A stretch of DNA of 54,874 bases from a bacterium (GCA_043800725.1 JAZDMR010000023.1:1-54874); one strand, 5' to 3'. Numbered from the stretch's first letter, positions 17,568-42,505 are shown. Program-made: numbers and translations. Notes: generated by a model not told the origin, from the sequence alone.

Positions 17568-17599
17568 TCCGCCTAAGGCGGAAACTGCGCTACAGCTCG
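17568..17599 (-). repeat. GC hairpin plus a duplicated 5' 17 nt of tRNA-Pro
   Basis: TCCGCC-TAA-GGCGGA hairpin (17568-17582), followed by AACTGCGCTACAGCTCG (17583-17599), which is 16/17 identical to tRNA positions at 17520-17536. Confidence 0.8.
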
Positions 17600-36219: not shown

Positions 36220-36293
36220 TGGCAGGGGCGGAAGGTGTCGCACCCTCGTTGCCGGTTTTGGAGACCGGTGTTCTACTGTTGAACTACGCCCCC
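36220..36293 (-). tRNA. tRNA-Trp (anticodon CCA), CCA encoded, with non-canonical D- and T-loops
   Basis: GGGGGCG-TA-GTTC-AACAGTA-GAAC-A-CCGGT-CTCCAAA-ACCGG-CAAC-GAGGG-TGCGACA-CCTTC-CGCCCCT-G-CCA. The acceptor pairs fully (G1.U72). The D-loop lacks GG, and the T-loop is TGCGACA rather than TTCRANN. Confidence 0.8.
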
Positions 36294-36536
36294 ATCATCG
36301 ATGTTGGACAATCAAATATTTTTAGCACGTATCGCGCTGTTGTTCAATGGTGGGCTTCACACATGAGTCGCGTTCGATACTCCGTACCCCTGGCAGGGGA
36401 AAAGCGGCTCGAACTACATGGGTCGCCCCTCGTGTATTATTTCGGAAATATGGAGAAAATTCAATAGCTTCGGAAACTGATTTGACTTGATACTATTATT
36501 CATATATAATCTCATATAGTCATTATATATGATACT

Positions 36537-37589
36537 ATGGACCGTAGAGAACAGCGAATCGCAAGTATTCCCCAACACATCTGGTCGCTGGTCAATCAAA
36601 TTGATCAGTTGAAAGGCCAATGGATCGGCGGGGCTCAATTAAACCCCCAGGCACTCGGGCGGCTGAAGCGTTCGGTTTTGGTTACGTCGAGCGGTGCCTC
36701 CACCCGTATTGAAGGAGTAAAATTGTCAGATGAGGACGTGGAAAAGCTCATGCGCGGACTTTCGATTACCAAATTCGCCGACCGGGACAAGCAGGAAGTC
36801 TGGGGATACTACGAACTCCTTGAAAATGTCTTCAATTCCTGGAAGCACATTCCGTTTACGGAGAGCACAATCAAGCACTTCCACAAGGAGCTCTTGAAGC
36901 ACGTGAACAAGGATGCGCTGCATCGAGGTGAATATAAGACTTCGGAGAACAGCGTGGAGATATTCGACGAGAACGGAAAATCGCTCGGGGTCATCTTCAA
37001 AACGATTCCGGCCTATCTCACTCCGAAGCGAATGCAGGAATCGGTAGAATGGACGCGATGGGCCTTGAAGGAAGAGACACAGCATCCACTATTCCTCATG
37101 GCGAACTTCATTGTCGAGTTTCTCGCTATTCACCCGTTCCAGGACGGGAACGGCCGGCTCGCGCGCATTCTCACGAATCTGCTCATGTTGAAAAGCGGCT
37201 ACGCCTATGTGCCGTACGTTTCCCATGAAAAACTTGTGGAAGACAACAAGGCCGATTACTATGTCGCGCTCCGGAGAAGCCAGATAACATTCGGTACTAC
37301 GAAGGAAACAATCGCGCCCTGGCTTGAGTTCTTTCTGGCCATTGCACTTACCCAAGCCCGCCAGGCGATTAATCTGCTCTCCCGTGAGAATATCGAGAAG
37401 CTGCTGTCCCCGAAACAACTCGCGGTTTGGCAGTATCTTGAGCAGGTTACGGAAGCGACGCCAGGACAAATTGCGAAAGCGGCTCACGTCGCTCGTCCGA
37501 CCGTGTCGCAGGCACTAGAGGTATTGTTACGCCTGAAGAAAATCGAGCGGATCGGGCAGGGCAGGACGACGCGGTATCGGAGGCAATAG
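36537..37589 (+). CDS. Fic-family protein (probable AMPylase) with an N-terminal inhibitory motif and a C-terminal wHTH
   Basis: Fic core HPFQDGNGRLARIL, upstream SxxxEG-type motif (ASTRIEGV) and a C-terminal HTH-like QIAKAAHVARPTVSQALEVLLRLKKIERIGQGRTTRY. Confidence 0.9.
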   Translation: MDRREQRIASIPQHIWSLVNQIDQLKGQWIGGAQLNPQALGRLKRSVLVTSSGASTRIEGVKLSDEDVEKLMRGLSITKFADRDKQEVWGYYELLENVFNSWKHIPFTESTIKHFHKELLKHVNKDALHRGEYKTSENSVEIFDENGKSLGVIFKTIPAYLTPKRMQESVEWTRWALKEETQHPLFLMANFIVEFLAIHPFQDGNGRLARILTNLLMLKSGYAYVPYVSHEKLVEDNKADYYVALRRSQITFGTTKETIAPWLEFFLAIALTQARQAINLLSRENIEKLLSPKQLAVWQYLEQVTEATPGQIAKAAHVARPTVSQALEVLLRLKKIERIGQGRTTRYRRQ

Positions 37590-37600
37590 AGATAATTTGT

Positions 37601-37855
37601 ATGGCAAAGAAGGTAAAGGCTCTTCATGCGCTCAATTGGTACTACGGCAACATCTGCTCGCGGAAGTGCCCGGAAGAGAAGCAGAAAAGCCACTACGACC
37701 GCATGCACGAGATCATCAAAGGGCACGGAGAGTTTCTTATTACCCATACAATGTTCATCAAGGTCATGTATAACAAGTACCACGTTTGCGGATTAAGCGA
37801 CGAGGAACTTCGACGGCCGACTCGGGATTTCTGGAGACTGAAGTGTCTTCCATGA
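37601..37855 (+). CDS. 84-aa Cys/His-rich hypothetical protein
   Basis: Starts 12 nt after the Fic stop, and its TGA overlaps the ATG of the next gene (ATGA at 37852-37855). It has 4 Cys and 7 His. Confidence 0.55.
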   Translation: MAKKVKALHALNWYYGNICSRKCPEEKQKSHYDRMHEIIKGHGEFLITHTMFIKVMYNKYHVCGLSDEELRRPTRDFWRLKCLP

Positions 37856-40008
37856 TTACTATCACAGACGAACAGCTCGCGCTCTATCAGTCGCTGTTTC
37901 GCGGACGTACCGATGTGTATGCGAAACGGTGGGAAAAGAACGGACGGTCCGGATATTACCCTGCCTATCAGTTCGATTGGGCCGAGTTTCTCATCCACCA
38001 GCGTCGCGGCGGAAATATGGCAACGTTCGAAGGCAAGACCCCGCTTCCGTTGACGCCTGACGTGGTCAAAAAGCACCTGATCGGGCAGTACACCGTAGGA
38101 GTGTATCCGTTACTCAAAAACAATACCTCATACTTCATTGTTGCCGACTTCGATGGTCCCCAGGCGTTCGATGACGCAAAGAAGCTGGTCAAAGCCTGCA
38201 GCGAACTTCGACTTCCCGCGTATATTGAGCGATCCCGTTCGGGCAACGGTGCGCATGTGTGGTTATTCTTCGAAAATGCGTTCCCGGCTGCCCGAAGCCG
38301 CATGATTATGCTTGAGTGTGTGCGCAAAGCACTGGGAATGTCCGCTTTCGAAAAGGAGGTATCATTCGACCGGCTGTTCCCGAATCAAGACATGCAAAGC
38401 GGAAAGGGGTTCGGTAACCTGATCGCGCTTCCTCTCCAGGGTATATCTCTCGGACAAGGGAATACTATTTTCCTTGACCCGAAAACACAGGCTCCATATC
38501 CCGACCAGTGGGTATTTCTCCCAACAATTCACCGAATTCCTTCGAGGACGCTGGACCAAGTATTTGATACGATCGTGCGAGGTGACATGAGCGCTACGAC
38601 GGACGCCGCATCGACCGGGAAAATCACTCTTCGCCTTGATTCAGGGATTCGCACAGCAAAAGTCCGGCTCGATAAGGAAACGGTCAGCTTTCTTCGGGAG
38701 GAATTGAATTTCCCCAATCTCGACTACTGGCTGAAACGCAAGCTCGGCAAGAGCACATATCAGACGGATAAGTTTTTCCGATTGATCGACGAGGAAGGAG
38801 AAGATGTTGTCCTGCCCCGGGGTTTTCTTTCCAAACTCACTGACCATTTCCGGATGCGGGGAATACCGTTTGTCATCCATGACAAGAGATCAGTACTGCC
38901 CGAAGTCACCTTCTCCTCCGCGATTGAGCTACGACCGTCTCAAGTCGGCCTCGTCGAGCAAGCAACGGAGTCCGACCAGGGCGTTCTTGTTGCACCGCCC
39001 GGGAGCGGGAAGACGGTTATGGGCCTTCAGCTTATCGCCCGCCGGAAACAACCGGCGCTGATTCTCACGCACCGGAAGCAGATCATGGACCAGTGGATCG
39101 GGCGCATCCAAGAATTTCTCGGGATACCGAAAGCGCACATCGGCCGGATTGACGGCGTGAAGAAAACAATCGGTGACAAAATCACTGTCGCGATGTTGCA
39201 GAGCATGAACCGTCGGGAGGACGCGAGCAAAATTCGTAACCGTTTCGGAACAATCGTCATTGACGAGTGCCAGCACCTTCCCGCAAAAACATTTCGCGAA
39301 GTTGTTTCTCATTTGAATGCCCGGTACTGCTATGGATTAACAGCAACACCGAAACGCAAGCACAACGACGAAAAACTCATTTATCTCTTCATCGGAGATA
39401 TTATTGCGGAACTGCCGGAGCAACTATCCGTTTCCAAGACGACCGAAGGGAATACGTCCGTTGCCGTACGTTCGGTGATTATCCACGAAACCGGACTTGA
39501 GATTCCATTCTCATTCACTGCCGACGACTACCAACTGCTGGCGCGTATTGTCTCGTTCGATCAGACTCGTAACCGTCTTGTCCTGAACGACATCCGTCAT
39601 TCCGTCGGGTTCGGATTGAAAACACTGGTGTTAAGCGAGAGAAAAGAACATCTGGAAGTGTTGCGCCTCTATCAAAAAGGGATCGCCGAATCCATCCTCA
39701 TCACTGGCGACGACTCCCTTGCATCGCGGAAAAGCAAATTTGCCCAGATTGCTTCCGGCCACTATCAGATTCTCTTCGCAACCGGGCAACTCCTCGGAGA
39801 AGGACTGGATCTTCCCGATATTCAAGCGGTTATCCTCGCATTTCCGCTCGCGTTTGAAGGAAAGCTCGCGCAATACATCGGACGCATCCGGAGCGACAAT
39901 AAGACCGTCTATGACTATCATGATGCGAAAACACCGTTTCTTGATCGTCAATTCAAAAAACGAAAAAAGTTCTATGAGAAGAACGGCTTTATCCTAACTG
40001 GTTCTTAA
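37852..40008 (+). CDS. AEP-type primase-polymerase domain fused to an SF2 (DExH) helicase
   Basis: N-terminal half: FRGRTDVYAKRWE, YFIVADFDG (DxD) and SRSGNGAHVWLFF (SGxGxH). C-terminal half: APPGSGKT, VIDECQH, GLTATPKR and QYIGRIRS. The start is set at the ATG coupled to the upstream ORF; the track ORF starts at 37786. Confidence 0.8.
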   Translation: MITITDEQLALYQSLFRGRTDVYAKRWEKNGRSGYYPAYQFDWAEFLIHQRRGGNMATFEGKTPLPLTPDVVKKHLIGQYTVGVYPLLKNNTSYFIVADFDGPQAFDDAKKLVKACSELRLPAYIERSRSGNGAHVWLFFENAFPAARSRMIMLECVRKALGMSAFEKEVSFDRLFPNQDMQSGKGFGNLIALPLQGISLGQGNTIFLDPKTQAPYPDQWVFLPTIHRIPSRTLDQVFDTIVRGDMSATTDAASTGKITLRLDSGIRTAKVRLDKETVSFLREELNFPNLDYWLKRKLGKSTYQTDKFFRLIDEEGEDVVLPRGFLSKLTDHFRMRGIPFVIHDKRSVLPEVTFSSAIELRPSQVGLVEQATESDQGVLVAPPGSGKTVMGLQLIARRKQPALILTHRKQIMDQWIGRIQEFLGIPKAHIGRIDGVKKTIGDKITVAMLQSMNRREDASKIRNRFGTIVIDECQHLPAKTFREVVSHLNARYCYGLTATPKRKHNDEKLIYLFIGDIIAELPEQLSVSKTTEGNTSVAVRSVIIHETGLEIPFSFTADDYQLLARIVSFDQTRNRLVLNDIRHSVGFGLKTLVLSERKEHLEVLRLYQKGIAESILITGDDSLASRKSKFAQIASGHYQILFATGQLLGEGLDLPDIQAVILAFPLAFEGKLAQYIGRIRSDNKTVYDYHDAKTPFLDRQFKKRKKFYEKNGFILTGS

Positions 40009-40054
40009 AAACCATCGTCGGTAGACACTCGGGTCGCACGATAACATTTCATCC

Positions 40055-40128
40055 CCGCAGAGGCAGAGGGAATCGAACCCCCGTTTCAGGTTTTGGAGAC
40101 CCGTGTTCTGCCACTGAACTACACCCCC
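40055..40128 (-). pseudogene. tRNA-Trp(CCA)-like gene with a non-pairing 3' acceptor strand (pseudo-tRNA or recombination junction)
   Basis: GGGGGTG-TA-GTTC-AGTGGCA-GAAC-A-CGGGT-CTCCAAA-ACCTG-AAAC-GGGGG-TTCGATT-CCCTC is followed by TGCCTCTGCGG instead of CACCCCC-N-CCA. Confidence 0.6.
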
Positions 40129-41867: not shown

Positions 41868-42026
41868 TGGTGGGCCGAGTAGGATTCTCCCGCACAATAT
41901 TGTTTTTGAAGCGGTTTGCGGGATCCCGCTATGACGCGGGAGAACCTACGAAGGCGTAAGCCAGCAGATTTATGCCGCCTTGGGCGGCACCCCGCCAAAG
42001 GCGGTGGCAGTCTGCCCTCAACTCCC
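41868..42026 (-). pseudogene. 3' two-thirds of a second tRNA-Tyr gene (B), with a 35-nt anticodon-loop insertion and a 54-nt T-loop insertion
   Basis: Outside the insertions at 41973-42007 and 41888-41941, the sequence from the anticodon loop to the T-arm is identical to tRNA-Tyr at 42029-42114. The acceptor 3' strand is TCGGCCC-A-CCA. Confidence 0.7.
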
Positions 42027-42374
42027 TCTGGTGGGTGGAGTAGGATTCGAACCTACGAAGGCGTAAGCCAGCAGATTTACAGTCTGCCCCTGTTGACCGC
42101 TTAGGTATCCACCCACCAGAGAGATTTGAATTATTTTTTTAATAAGCTTCTTAATGGCTTCTCCACCTTTGTATGATTTGATTTGTCGTTCGCGCTGATA
42201 TGCTTTATTGCGCGATTGGAAGCTCTCGTAATATATCAGTTTCCATGGAATTCCAGATTTTGTGGAACGCACCTCACCTTTATTATGATCCTTTATTCTT
42301 TCCTTGAGATCTTCCGTCGAACCAACATAGTATCTGCCAATTCTTTCACTTTTGAGAATATAGGTTTTGTACAT
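42018..42374 (-). CDS. small GIY-YIG nuclease-domain protein (ORF reads through tRNA-Tyr)
   Basis: MYKTYILKSERIGRYYVGSTEDLKERIKDHN..YQRERQIKSYKGGEAIKKLI is a GIY-YIG/URI-domain pattern. There is no stop until 42018, so the last ~35 codons overlap the tRNA gene. The track start is at 42404. Confidence 0.7.
   Translation of the reverse strand: MYKTYILKSERIGRYYVGSTEDLKERIKDHNKGEVRSTKSGIPWKLIYYESFQSRNKAYQRERQIKSYKGGEAIKKLIKKIIQISLVGGYLSGQQGQTVNLLAYAFVGSNPTPPTRGS
42029..42114 (-). tRNA. tRNA-Tyr (anticodon GUA), long variable arm, CCA encoded
   Basis: GGGTGGA-TA-CCTA-AGCGGTCAA-CAGG-G-GCAGA-CTGTAAA-TCTGC-TGGCTTACGCCTTC-GTAGG-TTCGAAT-CCTAC-TCCACCC-A-CCA. Confidence 0.9.
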
Positions 42375-42417
42375 ACAACTACATTCAAATTTTATCGTCT
42401 TCATCTAGAATAATAGA

Positions 42418-42505
42418 AGTCTGCCCCGTTTTCCCGCCACTGAATTAATTAATATTGGTTGGCGGGACCCCGCAGAATGCGGTGGGACCGCTTCGGTATC
42501 GACCC
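42418..42505 (-). pseudogene. 5' third of tRNA-Tyr gene B (acceptor to U33), with a 54-nt D-loop insertion
   Basis: GGGTCGA-TA-CCGA-AGCGGTC-[54 nt at 42432-42485]-AAAC-GGGGCAGACT. GGGTCGA pairs with the TCGGCCC strand at 41872-41878, a compensated 5:68 pair relative to tRNA-Tyr at 42029-42114. Confidence 0.65.

Follow-up and report, generated by a model that had tools for sequence, protein, structure and literature searches.

Among bacteria, the repetitive extragenic palindromic (REP) sequences and bacterial interspersed mosaic elements (BIME) with their REP-associated tyrosine transposase (RAYT), like the insertion sequences (IS) of the IS200/IS605 group with their miniature derivatives, have hairpin ends, insert precisely without duplication at a short preferred target and with a strand bias, and comprise many short non-autonomous copies linked to a single nuclease gene, the REPs being extragenic. 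For copies lying in frame within genes, the nearest bacterial analogy is that of the Rickettsia palindromic elements, reportedly described by Ogata et al. in 2000. These are 100–150 bp long, are restricted to Rickettsia and replace no tRNA, and we know of no nuclease gene associated with them. In fungal mitochondria, mobile endonuclease open reading frames (ORFs) in Allomyces macrogynus atp6 and in Glomus atp6, atp9, cox2, and nad3 carry a replacement gene end (PMC3630166). Allomyces mitochondrial DNA contains double-hairpin elements (Paquin, Laforest and Lang 2000), and yeast mitochondria contain GC clusters; both are described (PMC2800124, PMC4478555) as short and GC-rich, with one hairpin or two adjacent ones. 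They are dispersed, show polymorphism among closely related organisms, occur in intergenic DNA, in rRNA genes, and in frame in var1, are reportedly retained in transcripts and, in Allomyces, have no flanking duplications. The rRNA genes of the bacterial group studied here contain GIY-YIG ORFs in insertions that belong to neither the group I nor the group II introns, are found chiefly at the top or base of RNA stem-loops and are placed outside classical homing (PMC11270868), while archaea possess split tRNAs and tRNA introns at non-canonical positions, some of which are thought to transpose between tRNAs (PMC4090602, PMC4390854). Here we analyze a bacterial DNA stretch of 54,874 nucleotides (nt) (GCA_043800725.1, JAZDMR010000023.1:1-54874; hereafter designated the window, with positions counted from its first letter), in which a tRNA-Tyr gene (copy B) is interrupted by three GC-rich hairpin inserts and encloses a small GIY-YIG nuclease gene and an intact tRNA-Tyr gene (copy A). 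We consider that B is probably a resident tRNA-Tyr gene that a small mobile cassette has broken and replaced in function, with the three inserts being copies of a companion double-hairpin element (hereafter designated HP).

The whole locus is read on the minus strand. Besides rpsB, rpmG, and a short tsf, the window has the usual tRNA neighborhood (Thr-Tyr-Thr-Trp); the relatives of the organism are Patescibacteria. Piece 1 of B (42486–42505; GGGTCGATACCGAAGCGGTC) comprises the acceptor 5′ strand, the D stem, and the start of the D loop (tRNA positions 1–20) with 90% identity to positions 1–20 of A, and is followed by the D-loop element (42432–42485, 54 nt; CCACCGC-ATTCT-GCGGGG + TCCCGCC-22 AT-rich nt-GGCGGGA), a long-loop form that fits the family pattern. 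Piece 2 (42418–42431; AAACGGGGCAGACT) contains the end of the D arm and the 5′ strand of the anticodon stem up to U33. After ...GGGGCAGACT (42418), B is interrupted by 400 nt consisting of a 43-nt spacer, the GIY-YIG gene (42135–42374; 80 codons as in its homologues; Pfam PF01541), whose start lies 58 nt downstream of the D-loop element, tRNA-Tyr A, and an 11-nt trailer, whereupon GGGCAGACTG is repeated. Copy A (42029–42114), a tRNA-Tyr(GUA) with an encoded CCA that would serve as the replacement gene of the cassette, is the only copy detected at this locus by ARAGORN and Rfam (58.6 bits with the tRNA model). Its acceptor stem is extended by a 15-bp helix, in which the leader arm (42115–42129; TCAAATCTCTCTGGT) pairs with ACCAGAGGGAGTTGA (42032–42018). 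The trailer arm GAGGGAGTTGA (11 nt) and the repeated stub of the 5′ anticodon-stem strand of B, GGGCAGACTG (42017–42008), together occupy 42008–42028. These arms form an inverted repeat, I7, around tRNA A (22 nt, 91% complementary), and equivalent arms were found at five loci collected in the genome and metagenome searches described below (L001, L050, L012, L042, and L055). The anticodon-loop element, a canonical HP of 35 nt (41973–42007; CCACCGCC-TTT-GGCGGGG + TGCCGCC-CAA-GGCGGCA), then lies at the G34/U35 junction and leads into piece 3 (41942–41972; U35 to C56), which is 100% identical to 42079–42049 of A. Finally, a T-loop pair of TCCCGC...GCGGGA hairpins (41888–41941, 54 nt) at the C56/G57 junction precedes piece 4 (41868–41887; GAATCCTACTCGGCCCACCA), the remainder of the T arm, the acceptor 3′ strand, and CCA. 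The initial annotation had located the three inserts exactly, both in coordinates and in sequence (42485–42432, 42007–41973, and 41941–41888), and had overlooked the fourth interruption, which carries the GIY-YIG gene and tRNA A.

All three inserts fold as pairs of neighboring hairpins, with z values of −3.1 to −3.9 against dinucleotide shuffles (−3.67 in the D loop, −3.15 in the anticodon loop, and −3.93 in the T loop). The empty form of all three sites (GCGGTC^AAACGG, GACTG^TAAATC, and GGTTC^GAATCC) is shared by A and the intact tRNA-Tyr of B type in L004, and the three insertions are therefore precise and without target duplication. With the inserts removed, B differs from A at six aligned positions, the acceptor 5′ strand plus D arm, the D loop, and the acceptor 3′ strand accounting for two each. 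Pairing is preserved by the acceptor differences (G5-C68 to C5-G68 and U4-A69 to U4-G69), and A equals B from about position 26 to 65. The same arrangement of a stub, an HP, and a 3′ part recurs in L050, L012, L085, L011, and L080. A D-loop element of the same type occupies the same site in L084 and L001, and the T-loop site has an insert of the same type at the identical position in L005/L048; canonical HPs lie one base later, after G57, in L012, L124, and L201.

A scan with the nuclease alignment, covering one genome per species, yielded 80 loci, mostly from Patescibacteria lineages and also from some Omnitrophota, Ignavibacteria, Bacteroidales, and others; about 95–96 GIY-YIG copies, likewise mostly from Patescibacteria, were analyzed. 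An intact tRNA almost invariably follows the GIY-YIG gene, and on its flanks lie fragments of a tRNA of the same type, broken at hairpin-bearing loops. An intact tRNA on the same strand was found within 120 nt downstream in 64 of the 96 copies and a tRNA on either side in 79, the cassette tRNAs being Tyr (23) and Ser (33, with four anticodons), plus Pro, Thr, Glu, Val, and Lys. Most cassettes had pieces of the same tRNA on their borders, as a rule with 100% identity to the intact copy; the 5′ fragments stopped at anticodon position 34/35 or in the D loop, the 3′ fragments began at 35/36 or in the T loop and, when the nearest fragments of each locus were listed, about two thirds of the ends abutted a hairpin element, the others being short tRNA stubs just downstream of one. 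The common layout consists of a 5′ fragment, a double hairpin, 5–15 nt of the next tRNA segment, the nuclease gene, and the intact tRNA, sometimes continued by a short 5′ stub, a second hairpin pair, and a 3′ fragment, and its mirror form (L004, L011, and L080) runs from the intact tRNA through the nuclease gene, a stub, and a hairpin pair to a 3′ fragment. The window, L001, and L084 make up a sub-type, in which the upstream hairpin pair lies in the D loop and the cassette DNA begins after position 33–34. Nuclease-free forms are represented by L100, L180, and L195, relics with three or four hairpins by L097, and tandem arrays of fragment plus HP by L012 and L062. Many relics are mere stubs (for example, positions 1–14 or 1–20), which could never form a tRNA, and most relics thus cannot be genes. 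The displaced fragment differed from the intact tRNA in L011, L085, L180, and L195; in L180 and L195, the intact copy therefore came from elsewhere, and some of the replacement tRNAs are evidently, to judge from such mismatches, of foreign origin. A nuclease ORF, a foreign copy of the target gene, and the displaced native part stand side by side in the window, L011, L080, L085, L180, and L195.

HP is tightly linked to this minimal nuclease gene. A CCCGC...GCGGG hairpin was present within 160 nt upstream of 51 of 95 GIY-YIG copies, mostly about 20 nt before the start, which corresponds to an about 40-fold enrichment over the background of 0.0125 per 160 nt. Moreover, GIY-YIG was the only protein family recurring near HPs among the matches listed in the metagenome scan described below (21 loci, compared with 6 for the next family).

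The cassette loci showed several further peculiarities. Tandem arrays of tRNA fragments with or without hairpins lie beside the cassette in L014 (2951–3661), L012 (2863–3220), and L062 (2082–2300); in L014, nine 86-nt repeats of the final 23 nt of tRNA-Tyr were counted, and such arrays suggest frequent slippage or unequal exchange at cassette loci. On the contig shared by L005 and L048, an intact tRNA-Thr(UGU) with a long extended stem is nested in the anticodon loop of an older tRNA-Thr (L005, 3435–3690), which also bears a TCCCGCC...GGCGGGA hairpin; no nuclease gene lies between the nested and the older tRNA-Thr, and the contig further contains several tRNA-Thr(GGU) 3′ fragments and a 23S_rRNA_IVP gene. 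ARAGORN calls a tRNA-Pro in L066 (2734–2810), the D arm of which is replaced by a CCCCGCC-GGT-GGCGGGG hairpin, and reports the hairpin-bearing tRNA-Tyr 3′ fragment of L011 (2752–2848) as a ‘tRNA-Ser, 97 nt’.

The window ORF scored 58 bits against PF01541 (cut-off, 22.6; E = 1.2e-15). Homologues are about 80 residues long, and the window protein is 88% identical to one of them (P0001, 80 residues) and keeps all of the residues that are invariant in 27 homologues (Y5, Y16, G18, R26, H30, N31, and E62). A profile of these 27 homologues, searched against the PDB, matched the UPF0213 proteins BH0048 and EF2693 (1zg2, 3e-13; 1ywl, 6e-10) and the structure-specific endonuclease SLX1 (1e-6 to 3e-5) as the closest solved relatives, and I-TevI much more weakly (0.003); with the NCBIfam model of group I intron endonucleases, the window protein reached 18 bits, below the cut-off of 56. 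The protein is a bare 80-residue catalytic core lacking a DNA-binding domain of the I-TevI type and is probably a structure-specific enzyme of the UPF0213/SLX1 type. In the window gene, an extra A in an A-run deletes the stop codon, which is kept in L001, so that the ORF extends for 38 codons through tRNA A to 42018; this missing stop (42018–42152) may be either a genuine frameshift or a homopolymer sequencing error.

The three inserts belong, as the initial annotation had proposed, to one sequence family, of which many further copies exist in other genomes. The 35-nt consensus is CCACCGCC-N3-GGCGGGG TCCCGCC-N3-GGCGGGA, to which two of the three window inserts conform; the first stem contains a conserved unpaired A, and forms with a long loop (about 50–57 nt) or with a single hairpin also exist. 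The motif CCACCGC-N5-GCGGGG-TSCCGCC occurred twice in the window and in none of 100 shuffles, even when two mismatches were allowed. In the nuclease loci together with the window, the strict pattern was found 30 times, always on the strand of the nuclease and tRNA. When metagenomes were scanned with CCACCGCC-N3-5-GGCGGGGTCCCGCC, at least 120 loci gave exact hits, with at least 127 copies; among the matches listed (127 copies), 22 had a nuclease gene on the same strand within 400 nt and about 86 had no nearby nuclease or tRNA gene. The stems vary in a compensatory manner (TGCCGCC/GGCGGCA, TCGGCC/GGCCGA, TCCTGC/GCAGGA, CCAGCC/GGCTGG, and TGCCTC/GAGGCA), and the hairpin structure is, on the evidence of these listed variants rather than of formal covariation counts, presumably under selection. 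Likewise compensatory is the G-C swap in hairpin 2 of the anticodon-loop element, which the window shares with the tRNA-Tyr loci L010, L011, L016, L058, and L080. HP is a dispersed and recently active DNA repeat. In L001, an extra 55-nt double hairpin lies inside the 3′ arm of the first hairpin of the D-loop insert; its absence from the window means presence/absence polymorphism of a family member between relatives. A mirror-symmetric variant (L120, L140, L142, and the copies ending in GGCGGTGA) was also noticed, in which hairpin 2 is the reverse complement of hairpin 1, so that the element is one long palindrome with no orientation.

HP inserts precisely without target duplication, usually after G and often in the loop of a stem-loop. 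Among the matches listed, G directly preceded 85 of 105 distinct copies, and flanks able to pair over at least 5 bp were counted 42 times, compared with 27.8 expected and a maximum of 39 in 200 shuffles, which points to a tendency of HP copies to occupy the loop of a larger stem-loop. The idea of a tiny mobile hairpin resembling a miniature inverted-repeat transposable element (MITE) holds in so far as the family is large and dispersed over many genomes, inserts precisely, and is polymorphic in L001, and fails with respect to a classical MITE, since target-site duplications are absent at all three window sites (compared with A and L004), no transposase family recurs near HPs, and no transposase-encoding IS related to them was found. 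No HUH (Y1) or DDE transposase recurs, and no HUH protein is encoded among the ORFs within 1 kb of the 127 HPs listed (neighborhoods, not whole genomes). Nor is the family confined to tRNA loops, for which the initial annotation had suggested a preference; about two thirds of the copies among the matches listed are elsewhere, and some lie in frame in housekeeping genes. Two other origins were rejected. The HP pattern had no match in 2.9 million viral contigs, among which one distant GIY-YIG relative was found, which speaks against a phage origin, and the loci contain one or two copies rather than arrays with spacers, which speaks against an array like the clustered regularly interspaced short palindromic repeats.

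Among the matches listed, 20 non-redundant HPs were located deep in long ORFs (14 antisense and 6 sense), and 19 of them are 36 or 54 nt long, that is, divisible by three; in tRNA or nuclease contexts, 25 of 35 lengths leave a remainder of 2, with 35 nt predominating. This frame constraint means that the insert stays in the mRNA. Nine HP-bearing ORFs were identified as LigA (with TASGGVPPEGGK), a P-type ATPase, GatB, LepA, BipA, the CCA-adding enzyme, a radical SAM protein, a cysteine desulfurase, and ATP sulfurylase. Most of the 36-nt copies in ORFs, those ending in GGCGGTGA, are of the mirror-symmetric variant.

A mechanism may be outlined from these observations. The cassette would enter a tRNA gene carrying a whole or half tRNA, so that an intact gene is re-formed beside the nuclease gene, whereas the displaced pieces of the old gene persist as relics; the cell would come to depend on the cassette tRNA, and the cassette would persist because it replaces the gene that it breaks. 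HP DNA, and the single-stranded DNA of tRNA genes, could fold into hairpins or a cloverleaf, and a structure-specific GIY-YIG nuclease might cut such structures, leading to both HP insertion and cassette spread, either by a hairpin-end route like that of IS200/IS605 or by break-induced copying. The nuclease would in this way mobilize the HPs. Relic loops would gather more HPs, being good targets that are no longer selected as tRNA. In the window, A, with its foreign type of acceptor stem, would supply tRNA-Tyr and B would not be expressed as a tRNA. We further propose, tentatively and with somewhat more doubt than confidence, a hitherto unrecognized type of mobile element of bacteria, which would be common in Patescibacteria and extend to several other phyla and in which a minimal, structure-specific GIY-YIG nuclease mobilizes 35-nt double hairpins into the loops of stem-loops and breaks a tRNA gene while supplying its replacement, the same hairpins seeding 12-residue insertions in essential proteins.

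Several observations weigh against the displaced-gene reading or are only partly accounted for by it. A part of the GIY-YIG protein in HP movement is suggested by linkage, and a nuclease cutting plain tRNA genes would also hit the intact tRNA of its own cassette, an immunity for which the mechanism offers no explanation. About two thirds of the HPs among the matches listed, a rough proportion given that the metagenome sample was chosen by the strict consensus, have no GIY-YIG gene nearby and may have been moved in trans, be immobile, or have moved otherwise. The G rule fails at the D-loop and T-loop sites of the window, where the preceding base is C. A further objection comes from L001, a contig from a Joint Genome Institute (JGI) metagenome (3300014656) that encodes a nuclease 88% identical to that of the window and has the same order of parts, with an overall identity of about 85–90%. 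The pieces of B are unchanged between the two (20/20, 14/14, 31/31, and 20/20, totaling 85/85), as is tRNA A (86/86), while the three inserts are 90–94%, the nuclease gene 89%, the flanking ORF 83%, and the spacers 58–81% identical; a dead relic would be expected to diverge with its surroundings. Gene conversion could keep uniform the roughly 50 of the 85 nt that B has in common with A, and for the remaining about 35 B-specific nt the chance of zero changes is estimated at about 0.01–0.05, assuming 8–12% neutral divergence. Selection as homology arms, selection as a folding scaffold for the cassette transcript, and independent recent acquisition in both lineages are possible explanations of this perfect conservation, function as a tRNA being the minority reading. 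In addition, B retains all four of its pieces and, when the cassette is left out, is predicted to fold as a cloverleaf with decorated loops. Lastly, in L003, a 704-nt contig from another sample, positions 1–66 of tRNA-Tyr A are fused to the T-loop insert (570–704), with no intact copy within the contig; the joint looks like a recombination across the 31 nt common to A and B.

Among other explanations, the strongest, which we nonetheless judge unlikely, regards HPs not as independent elements but as the cis-acting site of a homing cassette. A GIY-YIG homing endonuclease would cut uninterrupted tRNA genes, and the cassette would be copied in by repair; the hairpins would split or mask the recognition site, thereby conferring immunity, or mark where the enzyme binds, and copies elsewhere would be secondary. 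In agreement with this, nearly all displaced fragments have a hairpin where they are broken, a hairpin also precedes the nuclease gene by about 20 nt, and the tRNA-Tyr cassettes of several lineages share the TGCCGCC/GGCGGCA variant, as if hairpin and cassette travelled together. The 5–15 nt of tRNA between the HP and the cassette DNA would be expected if cutting and repair took place at a distance from the bound site, and in Bacteroidales and Ignavibacteria a single CCCCGCC-N-GGCGGGG hairpin is able to replace the D arm or neighboring stems of the extra copy. The closest precedent, the mitochondrial mobile ORFs with a replacement gene end (PMC3630166), would also favor homing. However, most HPs among the matches listed are far from nuclease and tRNA genes, many of them inside ORFs, and the intact cassette tRNA, usually 100% identical to the displaced pieces, has no visible protection. 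Moreover, the protein is only the 80-residue core without a domain such as that by which I-TevI binds DNA, and is nearest to the structure-specific SLX1. Nor are the nuclease sequences deeply partitioned by tRNA target; mean identity was 0.525 within and 0.519 between tRNA types, and the nearest neighbor shared the tRNA type in 53 of 78 cases, compared with 27.8 expected. This weak partition fits recognition of a shared structure rather than of tRNA sequence.

Removal of the inserts from the transcript, which the initial annotation had raised as its second option, is considerably less probable. According to this explanation, a protein-dependent bacterial activity, perhaps GIY-YIG together with an RNA ligase, would excise the inserts, and B, or recombinants of the L003 type, would give a working tRNA-Tyr. 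The location of all three inserts in loops, the conservation of the B pieces in L001 against diverged surroundings, the compensatory acceptor differences between A and B, the cloverleaf fold of cassette-free B, the invariable sense orientation of anticodon- and T-loop HPs, and the T-loop insert in the apparently sole local copy of L003 can all be cited in its favor. B is, however, also cut in two by the 400-nt cassette, and when HPs were removed in silico, none of 120 HPs among the matches listed gave an intact tRNA detectable by ARAGORN. Where tRNA-like flanks were present (37 HP copies), an automatic match found the corresponding intact tRNA in the same locus for 19, and a non-exhaustive inspection of the remainder showed, wherever the contig sufficed, the canonical cassette with an intact isoacceptor about 300–600 nt away. 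Modeling of the junctions, which had been suggested as a check, gave no bulge-helix-bulge in the predicted fold of cassette-free B; the hairpins abut the exons inside the loops, and the sequence of a 3-nt bulge, a 4-bp helix, and a 3-nt bulge was not formed. No group I core (P3–P9, usually at least 200 nt) is present in these inserts of 35–54 nt, and Rfam recognized no intron, ribozyme, or known motif, returning only tRNAs for the whole window at the gathering threshold and, for the locus at E ≤ 1, two weak plastid-UTR (untranslated region) matches over tRNA A on the opposite strand. Furthermore, two stem-breaking changes have decayed the T-loop hairpins of L001 while its exons are unchanged, a few HPs occupy the D-loop A14 site in antisense orientation relative to the tRNA, and the copies in ORFs, held to multiples of three and often antisense, are not removed there. 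From the failure to restore tRNAs by removal of 120 HPs, the frame constraint, the lack of a splicing signature, and the stub relics, it may be concluded that HPs are most likely selfish elements at the DNA level rather than spliced introns and that B is most likely a displaced gene.

That the hairpins are ordinary host features (terminator-like or RNA-stabilizing palindromes) or chance structures in a decaying pseudogene, with no mobility or nuclease link, hardly deserves credence, since, although GC-rich hairpins are common in intergenic DNA and the window itself has 21 CCGC...GCGG hairpins compared with 11 expected, it is contradicted by the recurrence of 20 specified bases of a 25-nt motif in exact register across phyla and tRNA types, of which none is expected by chance in the window, by the presence/absence polymorphism between relatives, by the in-frame copies in nine different housekeeping genes, and by the hairpin enrichment beside the nuclease gene.

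Other tRNA loci of the window were also compared with the family. A second relic (17568–17599, minus strand) consists of a 17-nt tRNA-Pro 5′ fragment (17599–17583) with a single TCCGCC-TTA-GGCGGA hairpin in its D loop, lies 31 nt upstream of an intact tRNA-Pro(CGG), and has no GIY-YIG gene. The hairpin at 17568–17582 had been regarded as a similar string flanking tRNA-Pro; it is an instance of the same phenomenon, lying in the D loop of a tRNA relic rather than in a plain flank. The string TCTGCGGGG noted at the tRNA-Trp copy does not belong to the family and instead lies at the junction of an integrated 3.7-kb island. There, a tRNA-Trp (40128–40057) with a mismatched 3′ acceptor strand is followed by the island, which has a higher GC content, encodes a Fic protein and an AEP-TOTE primase-helicase (36220–40128), and ends in a complete, unusual tRNA-Trp (36293–36220) with the T loop TGCGACA; here, for the second time in the window, an inserted element supplies a copy of the very tRNA that it disrupts. 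Another structured element of 115–150 nt directly follows the CCA of tRNA-Thr(GGU), tRNA-Tyr B, and tRNA-Pro (42650–42535, 41866–41750, and 17458–17300, respectively, all on the minus strand) and has four copies in L001; its 3′ module, TCTCACGCTTAACCCT...GGGCCCAAGCGTTCGA, is conserved, and its inner hairpins vary by compensatory changes. For two of the three window copies, those at the tRNA-Tyr locus, Rfam gave no match.

If the displaced-gene reading is true, it accounts for the nested, fragmented, and seemingly duplicated tRNA genes of many Patescibacteria. It would also provide a source for recurrent 12-residue insertions in housekeeping proteins, a hairpin repeat family tied to a GIY-YIG nuclease instead of an HUH transposase, a possible and testable function for the very common small UPF0213 proteins, and, in bacteria, a counterpart to two kinds of element known from fungal mitochondria, the double-hairpin elements and the endonuclease ORFs that replace genes. 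In practice, HP relics can inflate and distort tRNA annotation, as exemplified by the 97-nt tRNA-Ser and the hairpin-substituted tRNA-Pro called by ARAGORN, and protein-dependent splicing of tRNAs in Bacteria finds no good support in these inserts. A full-text literature search found no description of a GIY-YIG plus tRNA cassette or of this hairpin family in bacteria, which is not proof of novelty; a hairpin element together with a minimal GIY-YIG nuclease and a replacement tRNA makes up a widespread and apparently undescribed combination.

Compared with the systems described at the outset, HPs resemble REP/RAYT and IS200/IS605 in having two hairpins, no target duplication, and a preferred preceding G (in the 85 of 105 copies among the matches listed), and differ in that the linked enzyme is GIY-YIG rather than an HUH/Y1 transposase and that HPs also occur in ORFs and tRNA genes. 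The copies in ORFs keep the frame like the Rickettsia palindromic elements, a likeness by description only, whereas HPs are 35–36 nt long and belong to another host group. The GIY-YIG proteins of the rRNA insertions, also compared by description, come from a study that covers rRNA genes only and makes no mention of tRNA, hairpins, or palindromes (PMC11270868). With archaeal tRNA introns, the locus has in common several interruptions in the D, anticodon, and T loops of one tRNA gene (PMC4090602, PMC4390854); unlike them, it is bacterial, has no bulge-helix-bulge, is accompanied by an intact copy, and gives no sign of splicing. The elements of Allomyces and yeast are organellar and unrelated to HP in sequence, the likeness being drawn from literature descriptions and not from a sequence test, and PMC2800124 and PMC4478555 report no specific association of these elements with tRNA loops or a nuclease gene. 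The mitochondrial ORF elements come nearest. There as here, an endonuclease ORF (GIY-YIG in Glomus atp9) situated in a host gene brings a foreign gene part, resulting in an intact hybrid and a displaced native end (PMC3630166). The present elements differ in residing in bacterial chromosomes, in targeting tRNA and often nesting a whole tRNA in the old one, in having a bare 80-residue core of the UPF0213/SLX1 type, and in the conserved double hairpin that marks the break; endonuclease activity has been demonstrated for the mitochondrial elements (PMC3630166), and that of the present proteins is predicted from sequence. The layouts of L011, L080, and L004, with an intact tRNA, a nuclease gene, and a displaced 3′ part, correspond to those of the mitochondrial ORF elements, and the window, with A inside B, represents a variant of the same arrangement.

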